A DNA stretch of 64,000 nucleotides, taken from NCBI RefSeq assembly GCF_048403405.1, contig NZ_CP183136.1; one strand, written 5' to 3'. Positions within the stretch are counted from its first letter, which is position 1; each line of letters begins with the position of its first letter. Positions 16,862 through 50,167 of the stretch are shown in pieces. Source of the DNA: Escherichia coli (GTDB lineage Bacteria; Pseudomonadota; Gammaproteobacteria; Enterobacterales; Enterobacteriaceae). Under the pieces are notes generated by a model, which made no database searches, was not told where the DNA came from, and was given only the letters and a program-made list of their open reading frames with translations. The position numbers were made by a program, and so were the translations under genes.

Positions 16862-17203
16862 ATGCATACAGGGGATTTGTGTTTTTTTACAGGTGCCAGC
16901 CTGTTTATCGTGGGGGTTGTTGGTTATTTCTTTACAGGACTAAATAATAAAGGAGTTTATCTACTGAGCTCGTTTGTCTTCTTTGTAGTAAATGTCATAA
17001 GTGTATGTATGCTGCCAGATAATTTCTTGTTTCTTTGTGGTGCGGTTATGAATCAGTGTGCCGTACCGGTTGTTTCAATGGCAGTCAGCACCATGCCGAT
17101 TATCACGAAGTTTGACAGTTTCAGAAGGATGTTTATTTGTATTATGTTGTCAGCCATATGGTCTGGAGTGATGTGGTTTTTTATTATTTCATTAGTGAAA
17201 TGA
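16862..17203 (+). CDS. trbA: TrbA, small membrane protein
   Basis: ATG at 16862 (MHTGDLCFF...) within ORF 16817-17203; hydrophobic. Confidence 0.75.
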   Translation: MHTGDLCFFTGASLFIVGVVGYFFTGLNNKGVYLLSSFVFFVVNVISVCMLPDNFLFLCGAVMNQCAVPVVSMAVSTMPIITKFDSFRRMFICIMLSAIWSGVMWFFIISLVK

Positions 17204-17519
17204 CTGGTGCTAATTTGTCATAAATGCCAAATCCAATAGTGAGGTTGATTACCACAGACCAGAGGATAAACCAGACTGCTATCCAGTGACTTCTGAATAA
17301 ATCACAAAAATAAACATAGATGATTAGAAATAGCCATATCACAACAGCGATAATTGCTATAAATAACAGTATCGTCACAAATAAATCAGCAAAGGTTTTA
17401 ATGGGGAGAGTGTGCAATAATGAATACACCAGTAAAGCAAAAGCCGCATTACCTGATAATGACTCTCTTATGATGTTTCTCACTATTTCCAGTTTTTCTT
17501 TAAAAGATCGCTTTTCCAT
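17184..17519 (-). CDS. artA: ArtA-like antisense ORF
   Basis: 111-aa hydrophobic ORF on the opposite strand between trbA and traQ, as in F; expression not inferable. Confidence 0.45.
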   Translation of the reverse strand: MEKRSFKEKLEIVRNIIRESLSGNAAFALLVYSLLHTLPIKTFADLFVTILLFIAIIAVVIWLFLIIYVYFCDLFRSHWIAVWFILWSVVINLTIGFGIYDKLAPVISLMK

Positions 17520-17599
17520 TTGTACCTCTGACTAATATCACACAAACGCGAATATTACAGACATGAATACTCTCATGTAAATAATAACCGGAGTTTAAC

Positions 17600-17884
17600 A
17601 TGATAAGTAAACGCAGATTCTCTTTACCCCGGCTTGATATTACGGGAATGTGGGTATTTTCCCTGGGCGTCTGGTTTCATATCGTCGCCCGTCTTGTTCA
17701 CAGCAAACCCTGGATGGCTTTTTTTCTGGCGGAGCTGATTGCGGCCATCCTTGTGCTGTTCGGCGCATACCAGGTGCTGGATGCATGGATTGCCCGTGTC
17801 AGCCGGGAAGAGCGTGAGGCACTGGAAGCCAGGCAACAGGCCATGATGGCAGAGCAGCAGGAGGGCGGACATGTCTCTCACTAA
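17600..17884 (+). CDS. traQ: TraQ, pilin chaperone
   Basis: 94-aa membrane protein in conserved position. Confidence 0.9.
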   Translation: MISKRRFSLPRLDITGMWVFSLGVWFHIVARLVHSKPWMAFFLAELIAAILVLFGAYQVLDAWIARVSREEREALEARQQAMMAEQQEGGHVSH

Positions 17885-18425
17885 ATTACTGCCGGTTATT
17901 CTGTTGATGATGGCCACAGGTGTGCAGGCCTCCACCCGGGATGAAATTGAACGACTCTGGCATCCGCAGGGTATGGCTGCGCAGCCTGCACAACCGGCAG
18001 CAGACACGCCAGCCAGGACAGACAAGACAGAAAAGCCGGCTCCCCGCTGGTTCCGCCTCAGCAACGGCAGGCAGGTTAACCTGGCCGACTGGAAGGTGGT
18101 GCTGTTTATGCAGGGGCATTGCCCTTACTGTCACCAGTTTGACCCGGTACTGAAGCAGCTGGCACAGCAGTACGGCTTTTCCGTTTTTCCCTACACTCTG
18201 GATGGTCAGGGGGATATGGCCTTTCCGGAAGCATTACCGGTGCCACCGGACGTGATGCAGACCTTCTTCCCGAATATCCCGGTGGCCACACCGACCACCT
18301 TCCTGGTCAACGTCAACACGCTTGAGGCATTACCGCTTTTACAGGGGGCAACGGATGCCGCCGGTTTTATGGCGCGGATGGATACCGTTCTGCAGATGTA
18401 CGGAGGGAAAAAAGGTGCGAAATAA
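17871..18425 (+). CDS. trbB: TrbB, periplasmic thioredoxin-like disulfide isomerase
   Basis: Signal peptide and CPYC active-site motif. Confidence 0.9.
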   Translation: MSLTKLLPVILLMMATGVQASTRDEIERLWHPQGMAAQPAQPAADTPARTDKTEKPAPRWFRLSNGRQVNLADWKVVLFMQGHCPYCHQFDPVLKQLAQQYGFSVFPYTLDGQGDMAFPEALPVPPDVMQTFFPNIPVATPTTFLVNVNTLEALPLLQGATDAAGFMARMDTVLQMYGGKKGAK

Positions 18426-18729
18426 GCAGGTGGTGTTACTCATTGCCGGAATATCCGGCATCGCGACGGGAATAATCGTCAGCCTGAATATTCCCTTTAT
18501 CCGTCAGGGGCTTTTTTATCCCGCCAGTCCTGTAGAAATAGTCGTTTCGCTGTGTCTTACCTTTTCTGTTTCTGTTGTGTTTTTTGTGGGGGCAATTGTG
18601 GGATGGATTTCGGTGTCTGAAATATATTACAGCCGCATGACCGGTCTGAATGAATCATCAGTAATATCAGAGGAAACTTATAATGACAAAAAACAAAAAG
18701 AATCAGGAATTCAAAATCAGAAAAATTAG
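18415..18729 (+). CDS. trbJ: TrbJ
   Basis: GTG at 18415 within ORF 18322-18729 gives MRNKQVVLLIAG..., a small membrane protein. Confidence 0.7.
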   Translation: MRNKQVVLLIAGISGIATGIIVSLNIPFIRQGLFYPASPVEIVVSLCLTFSVSVVFFVGAIVGWISVSEIYYSRMTGLNESSVISEETYNDKKQKESGIQNQKN

Positions 18730-19075
18730 ACGGAATATTGAGTATAGTTTCAGAGGTTCTGACAGATATTTTTATTTGTTTATTGTTTTCCTTGTTGCCG
18801 GAATTGTTTTATGGGCTGTTATGCACGTTATTTTCGATGTCTGTATTGATTCGTGGATGGCCGACCCGAAATTACTTAATTTCCAGTATATGTGGAATGT
18901 TCTGATGAAAGTCATTCCGTTTACGTTATGGGCGCTGGCAGCAAGGTTTCTTGTTACATTTTTTCTGTCCCCAATGTGCGAATTAATATTCGGAAATATC
19001 ATGATATTCCTGCTGAAACGCCGTATGCGCCGGGAGAACACATTAAGGGAGGGCAAGAATGATGCCACGCATTAA
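18683..19075 (+). CDS. trbF: TrbF
   Basis: 130-aa membrane protein in conserved position. Confidence 0.8.
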   Translation: MTKNKKNQEFKIRKIRRNIEYSFRGSDRYFYLFIVFLVAGIVLWAVMHVIFDVCIDSWMADPKLLNFQYMWNVLMKVIPFTLWALAARFLVTFFLSPMCELIFGNIMIFLLKRRMRRENTLREGKNDATH

Positions 19076-20448
19076 ACCTCTTCTGGTTCTTTGTGCTGCT
19101 TTACTGACGGTCACACCCGCAGCGTCAGCGGATGTGAACAGCGACATGAATCAGTTCTTTAACAAGCTGGGCTTCGCCTCCAATACCACCCAGCCGGGCG
19201 TCTGGCAGGGGCAGGCCGCCGGCTATGCTTACGGTGGCTCCCTGTATGCCCGTACTCAGGTTAAAAATGTTCATCTGATTTCCATGACGCTGCCGGATAT
19301 CAATGCCGGATGTGGCGGCATCGACGCCTATCTCGGCTCGTTCAGCTTTATTAATAGCGAGCAGTTGCAGCGTTTTGTTAAGCAGATTATGAGCAATGCT
19401 GCCGGTTACTTCTTTGACCTTGCCCTGCAGACAACGGTGCCGGAAATCAAAACCGCAAAAGACTTCCTGCAGAAAATGGCAAGCGACATTAACAGTATGA
19501 ACCTCAGTTCCTGCCAGGCGGCACAGGGGATTATCGGCGGGCTTTTCCCCCGGACGCAGGTGTCCCAGCAGAAAGTCTGTCAGGACATTGCCGGTGAGAG
19601 CAATATTTTTGCTGACTGGGCTGCTTCCCGGCAGGGATGTACCGTTGGCGGGAAATCTCGACAGCGTCAGGGATAAAGCCAGCGACAAGGATAAGGAGCG
19701 GGTGACCGAAAAACATCAACATCATGTGGAATGCGCTTTCCAAAAACAGAATGTTTGACGGCAACAAAGAGCTGAAAGAGTTTGTGATGACGCTGACCGG
19801 CTCACTGGTGTTTGGTCCCAGACGGCGAAATCACACCGCTATCGGCGCAGAACCACTGACCGCTCATATTATCCGGGCCATGATGGAAGGCGGTACAGCA
19901 AAAATTTATCACTGCAACGATTCTGACAAATGCCTGAAAGTGGTGGCAGACACACCGGTGACCATCAGCCCGGGATAATGCACTGAAGTCTCAGATTACT
20001 AAACTTCTGGCCAGCATTCAGAACAAGGCTGTCAGTGACACGCCTCTGGATGACAAGGAAAAAGGCTTTATTTCCAGTACCACCATCCCCGTCTTCAAAT
20101 ACCTGGTTGACCCGCAGATGCTCGGTGTTTCCAACAGTATGATTTACCAGCTGACGGACTATATCGGTTACGACATCCTGCTGCAGTACATTCAGGAGCT
20201 GATACAGCAGGCCCGGGCGATGGTGGCCACCGGGAAATTATCGACGAAGCAGTTATCGAACAGTATTAACTGGACAATATGAATGATGCCACCGCGGCAG
20301 ATTGCGGCGTTTCCAGTCACAGGTACAGGTGCAGCAGGATGCGCTGCTGGTCGTCGACCGTCAGATGAGCTACATGCGTCAGCAGCTTTCCGCCCGCATG
20401 CTCAGTCGTTACCAGAACAACTATCACTTCGGAGGGAGCACGCTGTGA
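19059..20448 (+). pseudogene. traH: traH (pilus assembly), frame-disrupted
   Basis: ORF 19059-19676 matches the TraH N-terminal part with signal peptide; later TraH-like segments are in other frames (for example ORF 19724-19978); stop at 20446-20448. Confidence 0.75.
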
Positions 20449-23217
20449 ATGAAGTTTATGTGATTGCCGGTGGTGAATGGTTGCGGAATAACCTGAACGC
20501 CATTGCCGCCTTTATGGGAACCAGGACGTGGGATTCCATTGAAAAAATTGCTCTCACCCTGTCTGTTGTTGCGGTGGCCTTTATGTGGGTACAGCGGCAC
20601 AACGTGATGGATTTGCTGGGCTGGGCGGCGGTGTTTGTGCTTATCAGCCTGCTGGTTAATATCCGTACGTCGGTGCAGATTATTGATAACAGTGACCTGG
20701 TCAAAGTCCATCGGGTGGATAATGTGCCGGTCGGACTGGCGATGCCACTTTCACTGACGACCCGTATCGGGCATGCAATGGTGGCCAGTTACGAGATGAT
20801 CTACACGCAACCGGACAGTTTCACCTACAGCAAAACGGGGATGCTGTTTGGCGCAGAACCTGGTATGCAAAAAGCACCGACTTTTTGTCCCGCAATCCGG
20901 AAATCGCCAATCTTTTTCAGGATTATGTGCAGAACTGTGTGATGGGGGATATTTACCTGAACCACAAATACACGCTGGAGGAGCTGATGGCCTCCGCTGA
21001 TCCCTACACGCTGATTTTTTCCCGCCCCAGTCCGCTGCGGGGCGTTTATGACAGCAATAATAATTTCGTGACCTGTAAGGACGCGTCGGTTTCGCTGAAA
21101 GACAAGCTGAATCTGGACACACAGACGTGGCGGCAAAACCTGGCATTATTATGTGCAGCAGATATTTGGCGGTCAGCCCGGATCCGGACCTGTTATTCAG
21201 TGCAACTGGTTGAGTGACAGTTACCGTTATTTCTACGGCTCCAGCCAGTCTGCCAGTCAGATCATGCGCCAGAACGTCACCATGAATGCGCTGAAGGAGG
21301 GTATCACCAGTTATGCAGCCCGTAACGGTGACTACCGCCAGCCTGGTGAATCTGGCCACCACGTCATCGATGGAGAAGCAACGTCTGGCACATGTCTCCA
21401 TTGGTCATGTGGCTGATGCGAAACACTGCCGATGGCGCAGACCATTCTGGTGGGCATTACCATCGGTATTTTCCCGCTCCTGGTACTGGCGGCTGTCTTC
21501 AACAAACTGACGCTGTCTGTTCTGAGAGGCTATGTGTTTGCCCTGATGTGGTTGCAGTCATGGCCAATGTTGTATGCCATTCTGAACAGCGCCATGACAT
21601 TTTATGCGAAGCAGAATGGTGCACCGGTGGTGCTCTCGGAAATTTCACAGATACAGCTGAAATACTCCGATCTGGCTTCCACTGCCGGGTATCTTTCCAT
21701 GATGATACCCGCCATTATCCTGGATGATGGTCAGAGGCCTTGGCGCCGGTTTTTCCAGCGTGTACAGCCATTTCGCTTCCTCTGCTATCAGCCCGACTGC
21801 CAGTGCGGCAGGCAGTGTGGTTGACGGTAATTACTCCTACGGCAACATGCAGACGGAAAACGTGAACGGCTTCAGCTGGAGCACCAACAGCACCACGTCG
21901 TTTGGTCAGATGATGTACCAGACCGGCAGTGGCGCAACTGCCACACAGACCCGTGACGGTAATATGGTGATGGATGCAAGCGGAGCGATGTCCCGTTTAC
22001 CGGTTGGTATCAATGCAACGCGTCAGATTGCAGCGGCACAACAGGAAATGGCCCGGGAGGCGTCGAACAGAGCAGAAAGCGCCCTGCATGGTTTCAGCAG
22101 CAGTATTGCCAGTGCCTGGAACACGCTCAGTCAGTTTGGTTCTAACCGGGGGAGCAGTGATTCTGTCACCGGTGGCGCTGACAGCACCATGAGTGCACAG
22201 GACTCCATGATGGCCAGCCGTATGCGCAGTGCAGTGGAAAGCTATGCGAAGGCGCATAATATCAGTAATGAGCAGGCGACTCAGGAACTGGCATCAACAG
22301 GTTCTAGGTTCTCGTCTGGCGGAATGTATGCAGATGCTCATGCTGAATGGGGGATTAAACCTGAAATTCTTGGTGTTGGTGGTGGGGTTGGTGTCAGAGG
22401 CGGGTTTAAGGGAAGTCTTGGATGCGAACGGATGATGACTCACATTCTGCAAGTAGTGGCAGCAGAGCTACCCATGATGCTCGCCATGATATTGACGCTA
22501 AAGCCAGTACAGGACTTTAAAGAAGCCAGCGATTACTTTACCAGTCGCAAGGTCAGTGAGTCCGGCAGCCATACTGACAATAATGCTGACTCCCGGGTGG
22601 ACCAGTTGTCTGCAGCCCTGAACTCAGCGAAACAGAGTTACGACCAATACACGACGAATATGACCCGCAGCCATGAATATGCGGAAATGGCCTCCCGTAC
22701 TGAAAGCATGAGCGGGCAGATGAGTGAAGACCTGTCGCAACAGTTTGCACAGTATGTGATGAAACGCGCACCGCAGGATGCAGAAGCTATTCTGACAAAT
22801 ACCAGTTCGCCGGAGATTGCAGAACGTCGTCGGGCGATGGCATGGTCTTTTGTGCAGGAACAGGTACAGCCTGGTGTTGATAATGCCTGGCGGGAATCCC
22901 GTGGCGATATTGGTAAAGGAATGGAGAGCGTACCTTCGGGTGGTGGCAGTCAGGATATTATTGCTGACCATCAGGGACATCAGGCCATTATTGAGCAAAG
23001 AACGCAGAACAGTAATATCCGTAATGATGTAAAACATCAGGTTGATAATATGGTCACAGAATATCGTGGCAATATCGGAGATACTCAGAACAGTATCCGT
23101 GGCGAGGAAAATATTGTAAGACGGGCAGTATTCTGAACTGCAAAATCATCATAAAACAGGAGGCATTATCTACAGAATAATAAATATAATGAAGAGCAAG
23201 AAACGTCAGAAGATTAA
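20445..23217 (+). pseudogene. traG: traG (mating-pair stabilisation / entry exclusion), frame-disrupted in several places
   Basis: GTG at 20445 (MNEVYVIAGG...); TraG-like translation is split over ORFs 20283-20942, 20885-21217, 21153-21416, 21432-21824 and 21724-23136; 3' end approximate. Confidence 0.75.
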
Positions 23218-46065: not shown

Positions 46066-46074
46066 AAATGTAGG
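46066..46074. repeat. Target-site duplication AAATGTAGG, left copy
   Basis: Identical 9 bp directly flank both IS ends. Confidence 0.9.
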
Positions 46075-47131
46075 GGCTTTGTTGAATAAATCGAACTTTT
46101 GCTGAGTTGAAGGATCAGATCACGCATCTTCCCGACAACGCAGACCGTTCCGTGGCAAAGCAAAAGTTCAAAATAACCAACTGGCCCACCTACAATAAAG
46201 CCCTCATCAACCGTGGCTCCATAACTTTCTGGCTGGATGATGAAGCTATTCAGGCCTGGTATGAGTCAGCAACACCTTCTTCACGAGGCAGACCTCAGCG
46301 CTATTCTGACCTTGCCATCACGACTGTGCTGGTCATTAAACGCGTATTCAGGCTGACCCTGCGCGCTGCGCAGGGCTTTATTGATTCCATTTTTTCTCTG
46401 ATGAACGTTCCGCTACGCTGCCCGGATTACAGCTGTGTCAGCAGGCGGGCAAAGTCGGTTAATATCAGTTTCAAAACGCCCACCCGGGGTGAAATCGCAC
46501 ACCTGGTAATTGATTCCACCGGGCTGAAGGTCTTCGGTGAAGGCGAGTGGAAAGTCAAAAAGCATGGTCAGGAACGCCGCCGTATCTGGCGTAAGCTGCA
46601 TCTGGCAGTTGACAGCAACACACATGAAATCATCTGTGCAGACCTGTCGCTGAACAATGTGACGGACTCAGAAGCCTTCCCGGGTCTTATCCGGCAGACT
46701 CACAGAAAAATCAGGGCAGCATCGGCAGACGGCGCTTACGACACCCGGCTCTGTCACGATGAACTGCGGCGTAAGAAAATCAGCGCGCTTATCCCACCCC
46801 GAAAAGGCGCGGGTTACTGGCCCGGTGAATATGCAGACCGTAACCGTGCTGTTGCGAATCAGCGAATGACCGGGAGTAATGCGCGGTGGAAATGGACAAC
46901 AGATTACAACCGTCGCTCGATAGCGGAAACGGCGATGTACCGGGTAAAACAGCTGTTCGGGGGTTCACTGACGCTGCGTGACTACGATGGTCAGGTTGCG
47001 GAGGCTATGGCCCTGGTACGAGCGCTGAACAAAATGACGAAAGCAGGTATGCCTGAAAGCGTGCGTATTGCCTGAAAACACAACCCGCTACGGGGGAGAC
47101 TTACCCGAAATCTGATTTATTCAACAAAGCC
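46075..47131 (+). mobile_element. IS903-type insertion sequence (IS5 family), 1057 bp
   Basis: 18-bp terminal inverted repeats GGCTTTGTTGAATAAATC at both ends, single transposase ORF, 9-bp direct duplication. Confidence 0.9.
46152..47075 (+). CDS. IS903 transposase (DDE)
   Basis: GTG at 46152 within ORF 46107-47075 gives 307 aa; fills the IS. Confidence 0.85.
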   Translation: MAKQKFKITNWPTYNKALINRGSITFWLDDEAIQAWYESATPSSRGRPQRYSDLAITTVLVIKRVFRLTLRAAQGFIDSIFSLMNVPLRCPDYSCVSRRAKSVNISFKTPTRGEIAHLVIDSTGLKVFGEGEWKVKKHGQERRRIWRKLHLAVDSNTHEIICADLSLNNVTDSEAFPGLIRQTHRKIRAASADGAYDTRLCHDELRRKKISALIPPRKGAGYWPGEYADRNRAVANQRMTGSNARWKWTTDYNRRSIAETAMYRVKQLFGGSLTLRDYDGQVAEAMALVRALNKMTKAGMPESVRIA

Positions 47132-47140
47132 AAATGTAGG
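47132..47140. repeat. Target-site duplication AAATGTAGG, right copy
   Basis: Identical 9 bp directly flank both IS ends. Confidence 0.9.
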
Positions 47141-47257
47141 TAATAAGCAGGGTCTTTGTATTTCTGGAAATTATCTCAAACGGCAGAATATTGATCATAT
47201 CTTTTCCTTTTTTAATATCAGGGAGCACCATGCTCCCTGAACGGTTAATTCAACGTA

Positions 47258-47467
47258 TCAGATATGTGAACCACTTCCGCCGCTGCCACCGTTTCCACCA
47301 CTACAACCGTTGCTGCAACCACCACAACCGCCACCTTGACCACCGCAGCTACCGCCGCCGCCGCCGCCGCCACCACCACCAATGCCAACACCTAATGGAG
47401 ACTGGCGTGATAATTTAAGAGCATCAACGGACAAAACTACACCAAATTCACTCGCTTTTAATTCCAT
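47258..47467 (-). CDS. mcbA: McbA, microcin B17 precursor peptide
   Basis: 69-aa ORF with leader then Gly/Ser/Cys-rich core (GGGGGGGGGGSCGGQGGGCGGCSNGCSGGNGGSGGSGSHI). Confidence 0.95.
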   Translation of the reverse strand: MELKASEFGVVLSVDALKLSRQSPLGVGIGGGGGGGGGGSCGGQGGGCGGCSNGCSGGNGGSGGSGSHI

Positions 47468-47620
47468 AAGGACTCCTTTTTTAAGGGAAATTAATGCTTA
47501 TGACATCTGAATAGTATGTTGGCCAACACTAGTTACTTGCCGTAATTAACTATATTTTGCAATGATAATTTGAACTAAATTTGTACGCTTGTTAAATATT
47601 TAATAATAATATCAGTTGGT
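47468..47620 (-). promoter_or_regulatory. Probable mcb operon promoter region
   Basis: AT-rich sequence immediately upstream of mcbA; individual promoter elements not resolved. Confidence 0.35.
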
Positions 47621-47723
47621 TATGTTTATGCTGTTATTGTTTTTTTACAAAAATTAATATTGTGTTTACATTTTGCTTTCAGTTGCTGTCAGGATGTCAC
47701 ACTACCCCTTTAAGCCCCCACTG

Positions 47724-47815
47724 GTCTGGCAGGGCCGGGGGTGGGTAAGGTGAAACCTGTCAATCAGTACCGGCTTACGCCGGTATCATATGCAACAACT
47801 GAGTGCCGCCTTCCA
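47724..47815. repeat. Second copy of the element at 39084-39217, shorter by an internal gap
   Basis: Shares GGTAAGGTGAAA..CAGTACCGGCTTACGCCGG..GCCGCCTTCCAT in the same orientation. Confidence 0.6.
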
Positions 47816-47996
47816 TATCATATCATTTGCCCGTTTCCCGCCGTGCAGATCCGGTTTCCGGCTGAAGTGGATCCAGACCTGATTTGTTGCTGAGTATCGG
47901 TAAAAGAGCGGCTTATAATCTATTCTGAAACATGGCAAGTGAATCTGGGCTGTATAATTCCGGCAAGTGTCATCTGTATTTAAAGGTCGTGTGAGT

Positions 47997-48449
47997 ATGA
48001 AATTTATGGAATGTGCTGTCCGGGATGTGATTTATGGGACCAATGTCCGTATTGTCAAACCGGTCAACATTTATGAATGTGAACTCAGGGACAATGTGTT
48101 TGTCGGCCCCTTCGTTGAGATACAGAAAGGCTGTGTCATTGGTAGTGGAAGCCGGATACAGTCGCACACGTTTATTTGTGAGAACGTAACACTGGGGGAG
48201 AACTGCTTCATTGGTCATAACGTGACGTTCGCCAACGATCTGTTTCGTTCAGGAGCACCAGATCCGTCACCGGATAACTGGATCAGCATTACCCTGGGGG
48301 ATTCGGTTACTGTTGGCAGTGGAGCCATTATTCTGTCTCCGTATATATGCAGCGGAGCTGTTATTGGTGCGGGGGCAGTTGTAGTAAAACCGATTGAGAA
48401 CAAAGGCATTTATGCAGGAAACCCGGCAAGACTGATCAGAATATTATGA
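47997..48449 (+). CDS. Hexapeptide-repeat (left-handed beta-helix) acyltransferase
   Basis: Tandem imperfect hexapeptide repeats (IGSGSRIQSHTFICENVTLGENCFIGHNVTF...); ATG at 47997 within ORF 47967-48449. Confidence 0.7.
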   Translation: MKFMECAVRDVIYGTNVRIVKPVNIYECELRDNVFVGPFVEIQKGCVIGSGSRIQSHTFICENVTLGENCFIGHNVTFANDLFRSGAPDPSPDNWISITLGDSVTVGSGAIILSPYICSGAVIGAGAVVVKPIENKGIYAGNPARLIRIL

Positions 48450-48454
48450 AAAAG

Positions 48455-48480
48455 AAAAGGGCCGTTACTGGCCCTTTTTA
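48455..48480. terminator. Hairpin terminator after the acyltransferase gene
   Basis: AAGGGCC-GTTACT-GGCCCTT followed by a T-run. Confidence 0.6.
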
Positions 48481-48851
48481 TCAGAGGTAGGTCTGTGAAT
48501 ACGGCAGGTGTACAGAAATCGACTGCCGGGGATCGATTTCCAGGGCCGCCCGGTATTCTGCGTCAGTGATATCACCTTTTTTCAGTAAATAACCGAGAGC
48601 ATCGTTTCCCAGCCCTGACAGTATGCGTATTCTGGCGATCCGGACTGGCAAATAACCCATCAAAAACGTTATTGCCAGACATTGCGAACTCACCAATTTT
48701 GATTATTGGAGCCACTTTTTCATAAGTTCCGTGAAATTATTTCATAATAACGACCCTGTTTATTTTATGTAATGACTGGCAATAAAATAACTTGATTAAG
48801 TTCCCTTTATCCAGCCTGATAGTGGATAAAGGAAACTCAATCATAATTTAA

Positions 48852-49205
48852 TTAGTTTATTAACTTCATCGCATTCTTTTTTGTCTCCTCATCACTTTTT
48901 TGCTCCGATTGTGAAGAGGACTGAATGATTGTTGAAGAATTTAAATCGGCCATCTCTTTTGGAAATAGCGATCTCAATATATTCACGATATCTGAAAATG
49001 TGGTTTCTTTCGTCAGCAGTTCACATAAAAGGAAAGGGGCCCTGGGATCTTGTCTGTATAAGGCCAGACCTGCCGTCAGTGCAGCCCGGTTAAGGCGGCT
49101 GCGTTCCCCTTGCGGGATACTGTCCAGTGTATCACAAACAATTTTATCTGTTTGATTTACATCTGGATTTAGCTTAAAGGCAATGGTTCTGCGCTTGTCC
49201 ATCAT
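48852..49205 (-). CDS. parR: ParR (StbB), partition adaptor/repressor
   Basis: 117-aa ORF matching R1-type ParR; directly downstream of parM. Confidence 0.9.
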   Translation of the reverse strand: MMDKRRTIAFKLNPDVNQTDKIVCDTLDSIPQGERSRLNRAALTAGLALYRQDPRAPFLLCELLTKETTFSDIVNILRSLFPKEMADLNSSTIIQSSSQSEQKSDEETKKNAMKLIN

Positions 49206-50167
49206 TAATTACCTATGAGATACATACCGTTAACTAAATCATATTGAGAGTTATTGGTTTTAAAAAAACGTTCATCACGAATCTGTGTGTGTTTTTTTAC
49301 TGCATCGCATATTAATTCTGCGCCACCACCTATAACCATAACATGAGTATAACCAGAAAATTCATTGAGTGTATTTAATACACGTTGCTCAAGTTTACGA
49401 AGTGCTTCATTCATTGCTTCGGTGACTATTGATATTTTGTTCTCATCATTAATTCGTTGCTTCAGATAGTTATTATCTTTTCTGTGAATAATTATATCAT
49501 CAGCAAGATAGCTACTTCCTTTTGTTCTCGCAAGAGAAAGGGCATCTTTTACTGCAGATGTGACCAGAGATACACCAAGAGATGAGTCTCCGTATATTTT
49601 ACTGATCCCCGATAATTTCCCCATTACCTGAGAAATATCTAATGTGGTGCCCCCGAGATCTATAATTAATAAAGAATCTAACTCATCCAGTTCTTGTAGA
49701 ACTTCATAACCTGCCGGTATAGATTCAGGCATGACTTTTACATCTTTTATTGTGAATGTATCCCCACCATTTAATGTAATTTTTTTCCGGAAGTTTGCTT
49801 TCTTACGCTCAATATTTTCCGTATTGGGTTGGTTATTCCTGTCGTAATACTCTGTCAGAGGAAGTGTGCAAACAATATCCACTTCGCTTACCGGCAGACC
49901 ACTGGTCAGTAAGGCGTGGTGCACCGCAACGACATTAACGTCGCTGTATTGCCATGCGATATTGGTTGTGACTACAGCATCCGGGCTGATTGGATCAAAT
50001 GAATACTGTTCGCCGTTCAGTGTGTAGTTAAAGACCTTTTTATCACCAAAAGAAACTGCCCACTCGCGTTTGAAGCTGTTCGGGCTAATGTGCTGTTTAA
50101 TTGTTCCGTCGCTTTCCTGCCACTGTAGTTTGATGTTTGTTGAACCGTCATCAATGAATACCAACAT
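49205..50167 (-). CDS. parM: ParM (StbA), actin-like partition ATPase
   Basis: 320-aa ORF matching R1-type ParM. Confidence 0.95.

Follow-up and report, generated by a model that had tools for sequence, protein, structure and literature searches.

Recombination scar of a kanosamine-type gene cluster with an intact hexapeptide-repeat acyltransferase on a microcin B17-type IncF plasmid of Escherichia coli

Anatomy of the region between mcbA and the partition locus

The window analysed here, a 64,000-nucleotide stretch of contig NZ_CP183136.1 from Escherichia coli, derives from an IncF (IncFII) plasmid of the microcin B17 type. According to the list of open reading frames (ORFs), a single intact gene lies between mcbA and the partition gene parR/stbB; it encodes a hexapeptide-repeat acyltransferase and is followed by a set of short, overlapping minus-strand frames. 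The initial annotation had described a lone 150-residue acyltransferase between mcb and the partition locus, an orphan in its surroundings, and both statements are borne out by the ORF list and a Pfam match. Comparison with related plasmids indicates that the region is almost certainly a recombination scar, in which a fragment of a six-gene kanosamine-type cluster has been fused to the IncF backbone, and the whole is quite probably best explained as such a scar together with a surviving orphan amino-sugar N-acetyltransferase. The features of the locus are as follows, where FMO denotes a flavin monooxygenase.

47258-47467, minus strand: mcbA (ORF list)
47722-47815, no strand assigned: left flank, resembling IncFII backbone (matches to IncF plasmids)
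47816-48644, plus strand: 829-bp module from the six-gene kanosamine-type cluster (98.2% identity to L003 7377-8206)
47816-47996, plus strand: 181-bp region upstream of the acyltransferase, inherited with the gene (sequence reading)
47997-48449, plus strand: ORF of the hexapeptide-repeat acyltransferase, 150 residues from its ATG (ORF list)
48454-48479, both strands: G+C-rich hairpin with an A-run on one side and a T-run on the other, a bidirectional intrinsic terminator (folding and consensus scan)
48481-48642, minus strand: 3' end of the truncated FMO gene, comprising the final 53 codons and the stop (identical to the C-terminus of the 510-residue L003 protein)
48481-48660, minus strand: 59-codon ORF annotated as WP_002430946.1, "hypothetical protein", in plasmids L001 and L002 (translation)
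48572-48680, minus strand: 36-codon chimeric ORF running from the anti-CRISPR start into out-of-frame FMO DNA (ORF list and translation; no family match)
48644/48645, no strand assigned: recombination junction between cluster fragment and IncF backbone (three-way alignment)
48645-48680, minus strand: 5' remnant of an AcrIF11-family backbone gene, with its ATG at 48680 (translation against the 136-residue L004 protein)
48852-49205, minus strand: parR/stbB, IncF backbone partition gene (ORF list and annotation of related plasmids)
49205-50167, minus strand: parM/stbA, IncF backbone partition gene (ORF list and annotation of related plasmids)

The module comprises the acyltransferase, its upstream region, the terminator and the 3' end of the FMO gene, and its counterpart L003 is the IncK2/Z plasmid pSTEC2018_166-c. 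To the right, positions 48635-49300 are ~94% identical in direct comparison to the IncF backbone of two further plasmids (L004 and L005). A sensitive search with 48440-48860 reveals that homology splits near 48635-48644, such that most IncF plasmids align only to the right of the split and pSTEC2018_166-c only to the left, where it is annotated as "FAD-dependent oxidoreductase". The BLAST ranges overlap at 48635-48644, and an imperfect microhomology of ~9 bp, GCGATCCGG, occupies 48636-48644, left of the junction.

Each side of the junction carries the end of a different gene. All 53 residues of the FMO stub are identical to those of the intact L003 copy, with no differences in 164 bp, and for this reason the stub is a recent clean truncation and not the product of decay. 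The stub on the other side reads MSGNNVFDGLFASPDR, against MSGNNVFDGLFASPER at the N-terminus of the 136-residue L004 protein; its first 12 codons come from the backbone, and through the microhomology the resemblance extends to codon 16. The intact backbone gene lies at L004 3638-4048 (minus strand), downstream of parR/stbB, and its product matches NCBIfam model NF052490 (AcrIF11 anti-CRISPR ADP-ribosyltransferase) at 1.8e-26, with 93.8 bits against a cutoff of 50. Based on this family score, the deletion also took most of a predicted anti-CRISPR gene that IncF relatives carry.

The two stubs join out of frame, and the resulting minus-strand frames at 48481-48696 (71 residues), 48572-48715 (47 residues) and 48465-48575 (36 residues) gave no family above threshold in family scans, only a weak SHOCT match (E 0.019). 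The 36-codon chimeric ORF is most likely meaningless, and WP_002430946.1 consists of the FMO tail, six junk codons and a spurious start. Short overlapping frames are therefore present here, as initially annotated, and they had been read as one small gene decayed by frameshifts across 48481-48730. That reading has next to no chance of being correct, since the halves correspond to separate intact genes from different plasmids, the DNA homology switches sharply at 48644/48645 and the FMO half carries no mutations. What stands of it is the remnant, now resolved into the ends of two unrelated genes; aligning 48481-48730 to related plasmids, a check proposed at the time, recovers both intact ancestors, the 510-residue FMO and the 136-residue AcrIF11-family gene.

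The left boundary is similarly sharp. Positions 47722-47816 (95 bp) are 75-95% identical to thousands of IncF plasmids, in which the counterpart lies ~0.7 kb downstream of repA, between repA and pemI, and this backbone-like stretch stops exactly at the left edge of the module. Given this resemblance of the left flank to sequence downstream of repA, the module occupies the cargo slot that separates the replicon from the partition locus. A weak copy of the same stretch is also observed at L003 4329-4370, and the stretch may be a recurrent recombination site. Across its whole length the arrangement is common, with 47500-48900 found in about 88 PLSDB plasmids at 99.9-100% identity, and an Rfam scan of 47000-49300 returned just two sub-threshold chance matches and no known RNA element.

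The hairpin at 48454-48479 folds with -16.0 kcal/mol on the plus strand and -14.4 kcal/mol on the minus strand (z about -3.5 on both), and none of 200 shuffled sequences folds as well; the terminator consensus scan called it on the minus strand only. It is a bidirectional terminator common to the acyltransferase and the formerly convergent FMO gene. The terminator first credited to the acyltransferase as its own is thus real, and was shared with the lost convergent gene. In the 181-bp upstream region, the hexamer TATAAT can be recognized by eye twice in perfect form (47914-47919 and 47953-47958), each time with a poor -35 element, and 10 of the 15 differences between the module and its pSTEC2018_166-c counterpart sit there. 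The analysis thus establishes where the scar came from, where its boundaries lie, which genes left the two stubs, and that the acyltransferase is intact.

The ancestral cluster and the distribution of its acyltransferase

In pSTEC2018_166-c (NZ_CP075634.1, six-gene cluster at 16920-22261) the acyltransferase faces a five-gene operon in convergent orientation. By annotation, the operon order is a DegT-family (NtdA-like) aminotransferase, a HAD-IIB (NtdB-like) phosphatase, a Gfo/Idh/MocA oxidoreductase, a SemiSWEET and the 510-residue FMO ("FAD-dependent oxidoreductase"). The aminotransferase matches Bacillus subtilis NtdA (4k2b) at 4.6e-88 and 7kz3 at 1.6e-90, and the phosphatase matches NtdB (3gyg) at 7e-47. 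The Gfo/Idh/MocA protein occupies the NtdC position, where its best PDB matches are generic and its equivalence to NtdC is argued from family and gene order only; NtdC, a glucose-6-phosphate 3-dehydrogenase, reportedly belongs to this same family. Kanosamine, after which the cluster type is named here, is 3-amino-3-deoxyglucose. The FMO matches the Pfam FMO-like family at 1.9e-44, and its best solved relative is 8odw (6.1e-63), an entry found in no paper in our literature search. None of these biosynthetic genes remains in the window.

The SemiSWEET (L003 9572-9841, minus strand) is essentially the crystallized E. coli SemiSWEET, EcSemiSWEET (4x5m, 1.6e-51), for which the authors of the structure considered that sucrose is perhaps not the physiological substrate (PMC4309421). 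Judged by its gene neighbors, a 3-amino sugar is a better candidate substrate than sucrose. On the cluster proteins, NCBIfam gave no curated kanosamine-pathway equivalog, and only generic HAD-IIB and SemiSWEET subfamily cutoffs were reached. The literature search returned a passing mention of ntdABC on an E. coli pAA plasmid (PMC5320562) and nothing on this cluster beyond it. Kanosamine is an antibiotic whose 6-phosphate inhibits glucosamine-6-phosphate synthase (PMC9272926), and the same search returned no description of an N-acetylkanosamine-forming enzyme or of kanosamine resistance. At 97-100% protein identity to its E. coli plasmid counterpart, the cluster also turns up on two contigs of metagenome-assembled genomes (L022 and L023) labelled Lachnospiraceae and Clostridiales, most likely through binning contamination by an enterobacterial plasmid.

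The convergent acyltransferase accompanies the cluster in Escherichia/Salmonella plasmids, Erwinia sp. E602, Rahnella aceris, Pectobacterium brasiliense and Cedecea sulfonylureivorans. Across these five Enterobacterales lineages the acyltransferase retains 75-94% amino acid identity, with FMO identity falling to about 62%. Among PLSDB plasmids, the acyltransferase (at least 80% coverage) is present in 344, the ntdA-like gene in 60 and the FMO gene in 70, an excess over the biosynthetic genes of ~5:1. At least 80% of the module is present in 201 of 5,426 complete E. coli genomes. At least four types of truncation keep the acyltransferase, namely the mcb type described here, the ColV/ColIa plasmid of the type strain ATCC 11775, an insertion sequence (IS)-flanked chromosomal copy and Salmonella pLG24p2. 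The converse remnant also exists, in ColV plasmids that carry the SemiSWEET and FMO residues 1-321, cut by IS66, and lack the acyltransferase.

A fundamental question is whether the acyltransferase that survives on this plasmid does anything. One hypothesis is that it is an intact but idle neutral passenger, spared for no other reason than its position on the side of the breakpoint that was kept. The truncation is recent enough, with an unchanged FMO stub, to have left no time for decay, and the remnants without the acyltransferase indicate that decay runs in both directions; moreover, the consensus scan called no sigma-70 promoter upstream of the gene. However, an idle passenger accounts poorly for the excess of plasmids with the acyltransferase, for its retention in at least four different truncation types and for the strong purifying selection on solo chromosomal homologues. 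The ratio of nonsynonymous to synonymous substitution rates (dN/dS) is 0.04-0.09 between this copy and more distant ones, three of which are solo chromosomal genes (Brenneria, Klebsiella sp. and Enterobacter) and three cluster-linked or cluster-derived. We regard the idle passenger as unlikely, while recognizing it as a credible account of this particular copy.

Family and predicted chemistry of the acyltransferase

The protein matches Pfam Hexapep PF00132 in three stretches (1.1e-15, 57 bits, cutoff 27), which assigns it by sequence to the hexapeptide-repeat (left-handed beta-helix) superfamily. It differs by two residues from the cluster-linked pSTEC2018_166-c copy and keeps all 53 residues that are invariant in an alignment of 39 sequences, and the gene is intact and, on the dN/dS values of its family, functional as a family. 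An alternative GTG start at 47967 would extend it to 160 residues. An AlphaFold2 (AF2) model built from the 39-sequence alignment is poor, with a mean predicted local distance difference test score of 65.5, and displays regularly spaced short strands over residues 8-80.

A profile search placed QdtC, FdtD (4mzu), the 7s43 N-acetyltransferase, WlbB (3mqg) and VioB among the top seven solved relatives, and the same relatives are best in a single-sequence search. The motif FIGxNVTFxND is common to the acyltransferase and these proteins. By hand count from the alignment, E62, N80 and D81 align with QdtC E141, N159 and D160; N80 and D81 are invariant in the 39 homologues and E62 is not, being Gln or Gly in four. 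The QdtC residues Glu141, Asn159 and Asp160 are reportedly those that bind the sugar amine, and four of the solved relatives acetylate a C-3 amino group. On balance, the acyltransferase is probably an amino-sugar N-acetyltransferase. The assignment from solved relatives is suggestive and not secure, because the LpxD entry 4e75 reaches an equal E-value with matches in the repeats alone. A kanosamine-type substrate is proposed more tentatively, with a confidence that falls a little short of even. The substrate, listed as unknown in the initial annotation, can accordingly be narrowed without being fixed: the gene has been conserved in convergent orientation beside an ntdABC-like cluster of the kanosamine type, and its product is closest to amino-sugar N-acetyltransferases.

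Membership in several named families was considered and rejected. The best curated model, NeuD/PglB/VioB (TIGR03570), gave 59.9 bits against a cutoff of 160.8, with just the C-terminal 50 model positions aligned. LpxD models gave 48.7-50.8 bits against cutoffs of 207-242.5, with matches confined to the repeats at 26-81 in a protein of 150 residues, where LpxD has ~340 and carries uridine-binding and C-terminal helical domains. Vat and CatB models gave 26-29 bits against cutoffs of 300-450, and DapD, far below its cutoff, was rejected on score and length. Because no curated cutoff is reached, the public labels "LpxD" and "fdtC" are over-specific and misleading.

Several observations weigh against an amino-sugar N-acetyltransferase that belongs functionally to the cluster. 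Characterized N-acetyltransferases are matched only weakly (E 1e-10 to 1e-13), repeat content gives LpxD and DapD much the same scores, no curated NCBIfam model is reached, and a Foldseek search of the PDB with the poor AF2 model found nothing at E <0.09, only unrelated beta-solenoids. The closest solved relatives use nucleotide-linked sugars, and the NtdABC route is said to use free or phosphorylated sugars instead. Edaphovirga cremea, the sole exception to the convergent pairing, carries the five-gene ntdABC-SemiSWEET-FMO operon between speG and purN (L025 3669-10316), and no hexapeptide acyltransferase lies next to it or anywhere within 8 kb. Outside the cluster, each of the seven homologues examined, at 68-87% identity (in Brenneria, Photobacterium, Edwardsiella, Mixta, Enterobacter, Klebsiella sp. 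and Yersinia), stands alone in unrelated surroundings, and for this reason the family substrate may be unrelated to the cluster. The lack of a called promoter, noted above, belongs on the same side.

The solo homologues bear most directly on an alternative hypothesis, that the enzyme is a stand-alone xenobiotic or antibiotic acetyltransferase with an unrelated target and that its adjacency to the cluster is a historical accident. Single-gene insertions at unrelated loci are typical of resistance genes, and weak matches to Vat and CatB models point the same way. These matches lie far below the cutoffs, however, and a convergent adjacency kept over five lineages, to FMO identities of about 63%, is hard to explain without functional linkage. 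We consider this alternative improbable.

A second alternative is an FdtC/QdtC-type nucleotide-sugar 3-N-acetyltransferase that modifies a precursor of a surface glycan such as O-antigen. QdtC and FdtD are the top solved relatives, and the gene is so named in the published pMccB17 annotation and in one PLSDB record. The similarity is nevertheless weak, as given above, and reaches no curated cutoff; neither the plasmid segment nor the surroundings of any examined homologue contain genes for dTDP-3-amino sugar synthesis; and the conserved partner is an ntdABC-like operon, whose route reportedly involves non-nucleotide sugars. This alternative is very improbable, and an amino-sugar N-acetyltransferase with the cluster as its partner is the assignment carried forward below.

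In Pantoea soli (L008 6650-8360), a 154-residue homologue of ~68% DNA identity was noted beside genes for a ROK regulator, a carbohydrate kinase and a sugar ABC transporter, neighbors that hint at a part in taking up or metabolizing amino sugars in that genome.

Proposed history and comparison with known systems

Almost certainly, an ancestral plasmid carried the six-gene unit, consisting of the five-gene operon and, across the common bidirectional terminator, the separately transcribed acyltransferase. Illegitimate recombination at the ~9-bp microhomology then joined FMO codon 457/458 to codons 12-16 of the AcrIF11-type gene, removing the biosynthetic genes and the anti-CRISPR and sparing the acyltransferase, its 181 bp of upstream DNA and the terminator. 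The terminator would now also stop transcription that leaves parMR through the anti-CRISPR stub. The enzyme may be a trimeric, acetyl-CoA-dependent N-acetyltransferase acting on the 3-amino group of kanosamine or of an FMO-modified derivative, and in producers it would serve as a self-protection or tailoring enzyme. Given the separate transcription, the solo spread and the excess over the biosynthetic genes, self-protection fits at least as well as tailoring. With no biosynthetic partner in this plasmid, the enzyme would act here only on an amino sugar from other cells, as an orphan protective enzyme or an idle passenger.

Could the enzyme protect against a product made by competitors? In this extension of the hypothesis, a kanosamine-derived antibiotic would be made by the six-gene plasmid cluster of competing Enterobacterales and exported via EcSemiSWEET, and the acyltransferase would give stand-alone protection, kept as an orphan immunity gene in pMccB17-type plasmids and many chromosomes and forming part of a plasmid "competition island" found repeatedly beside microcin and colicin operons. 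We regard this proposal as doubtful on present evidence, and the lead lies mostly outside the window. It was observed separately that cluster copies or remnants adjoin bacteriocin operons (mcb, cvi-cvaC, colicin Ia and a tRNase colicin) on different plasmids (L019 4231-6939; L020 399-6687; L006 1377-10283; 45278-48449 of the window), which suggests a recurrent "competition" cargo region.

These results resolve an annotation puzzle, in that the downstream "hypothetical protein" is a fragment of a monooxygenase gene, and they lead to an uncharacterized cluster of the kanosamine type. This cluster is present on about 60 sequenced enterobacterial plasmids and includes the structurally characterized EcSemiSWEET, and its accessory acetyltransferase occurs much more widely than the cluster does. 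Should the enzyme detoxify the cluster product, it would make a testable example of an orphan self-resistance gene that spreads by plasmid beside bacteriocin operons. If it is an orphan immunity gene, the cluster would represent an uncharacterized system of small-molecule warfare in E. coli and would supply a physiological substrate for EcSemiSWEET.

The same gene is present in the prototype plasmid pMccB17 (ON989342), where it is annotated as "fdtC" between mcbA and stbB with no discussion of its origin, and where no transposable elements were reported (PMC10912980). The plasmid studied here differs from pMccB17 by an IS903-like (IS5-family) element of 1057 bp at 46075-47131, inserted ~30 codons into mcbB, which is also absent from plasmid L001. 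The element has the terminal repeat GGCTTTGTTGAATAAATC and is flanked by a 9-bp target-site duplication, AAATGTAGG, at 46066-46074 and 47132-47140. With mcbB interrupted, this plasmid probably no longer directs normal synthesis of microcin B17.

Like B. subtilis ntdABC, which serves kanosamine biosynthesis, the ancestral cluster contains NtdA-like, NtdB-like and Gfo/Idh/MocA proteins in A-B-C order; in the Enterobacterales these are joined by a SemiSWEET, an FMO and the convergent acyltransferase. The acyltransferase shares with QdtC (3fs8), FdtD (4mzu) and WlbB (3mqg) the hexapeptide repeats, by prediction also their fold, the FIGxNVTFxND motif and, by hand count, residues that align with QdtC E141/N159/D160, and a transfer from acetyl-CoA to a C-3 amino group, as in these enzymes, is predicted for it. 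It differs from them in length (150 residues against 165-312) and from QdtC in having Gln in place of His134. Its genomic partners are ntdABC-like or unrelated genes, and not the nucleotide-sugar (dTDP/UDP) 3-aminotransferase and isomerase genes expected for the QdtC/FdtC/WlbB type. A further likeness is to the orphan immunity and self-resistance genes of bacteriocin and antibiotic clusters: the acyltransferase is separately transcribed beside a biosynthetic operon, outnumbers it ~5:1 and occurs alone in many genomes, and by this analogy its role would be a putative protective one. Set among these systems, the feature is an ordinary recombination scar that carries an intact member of an uncharacterized, putative left-handed beta-helix N-acetyltransferase family.

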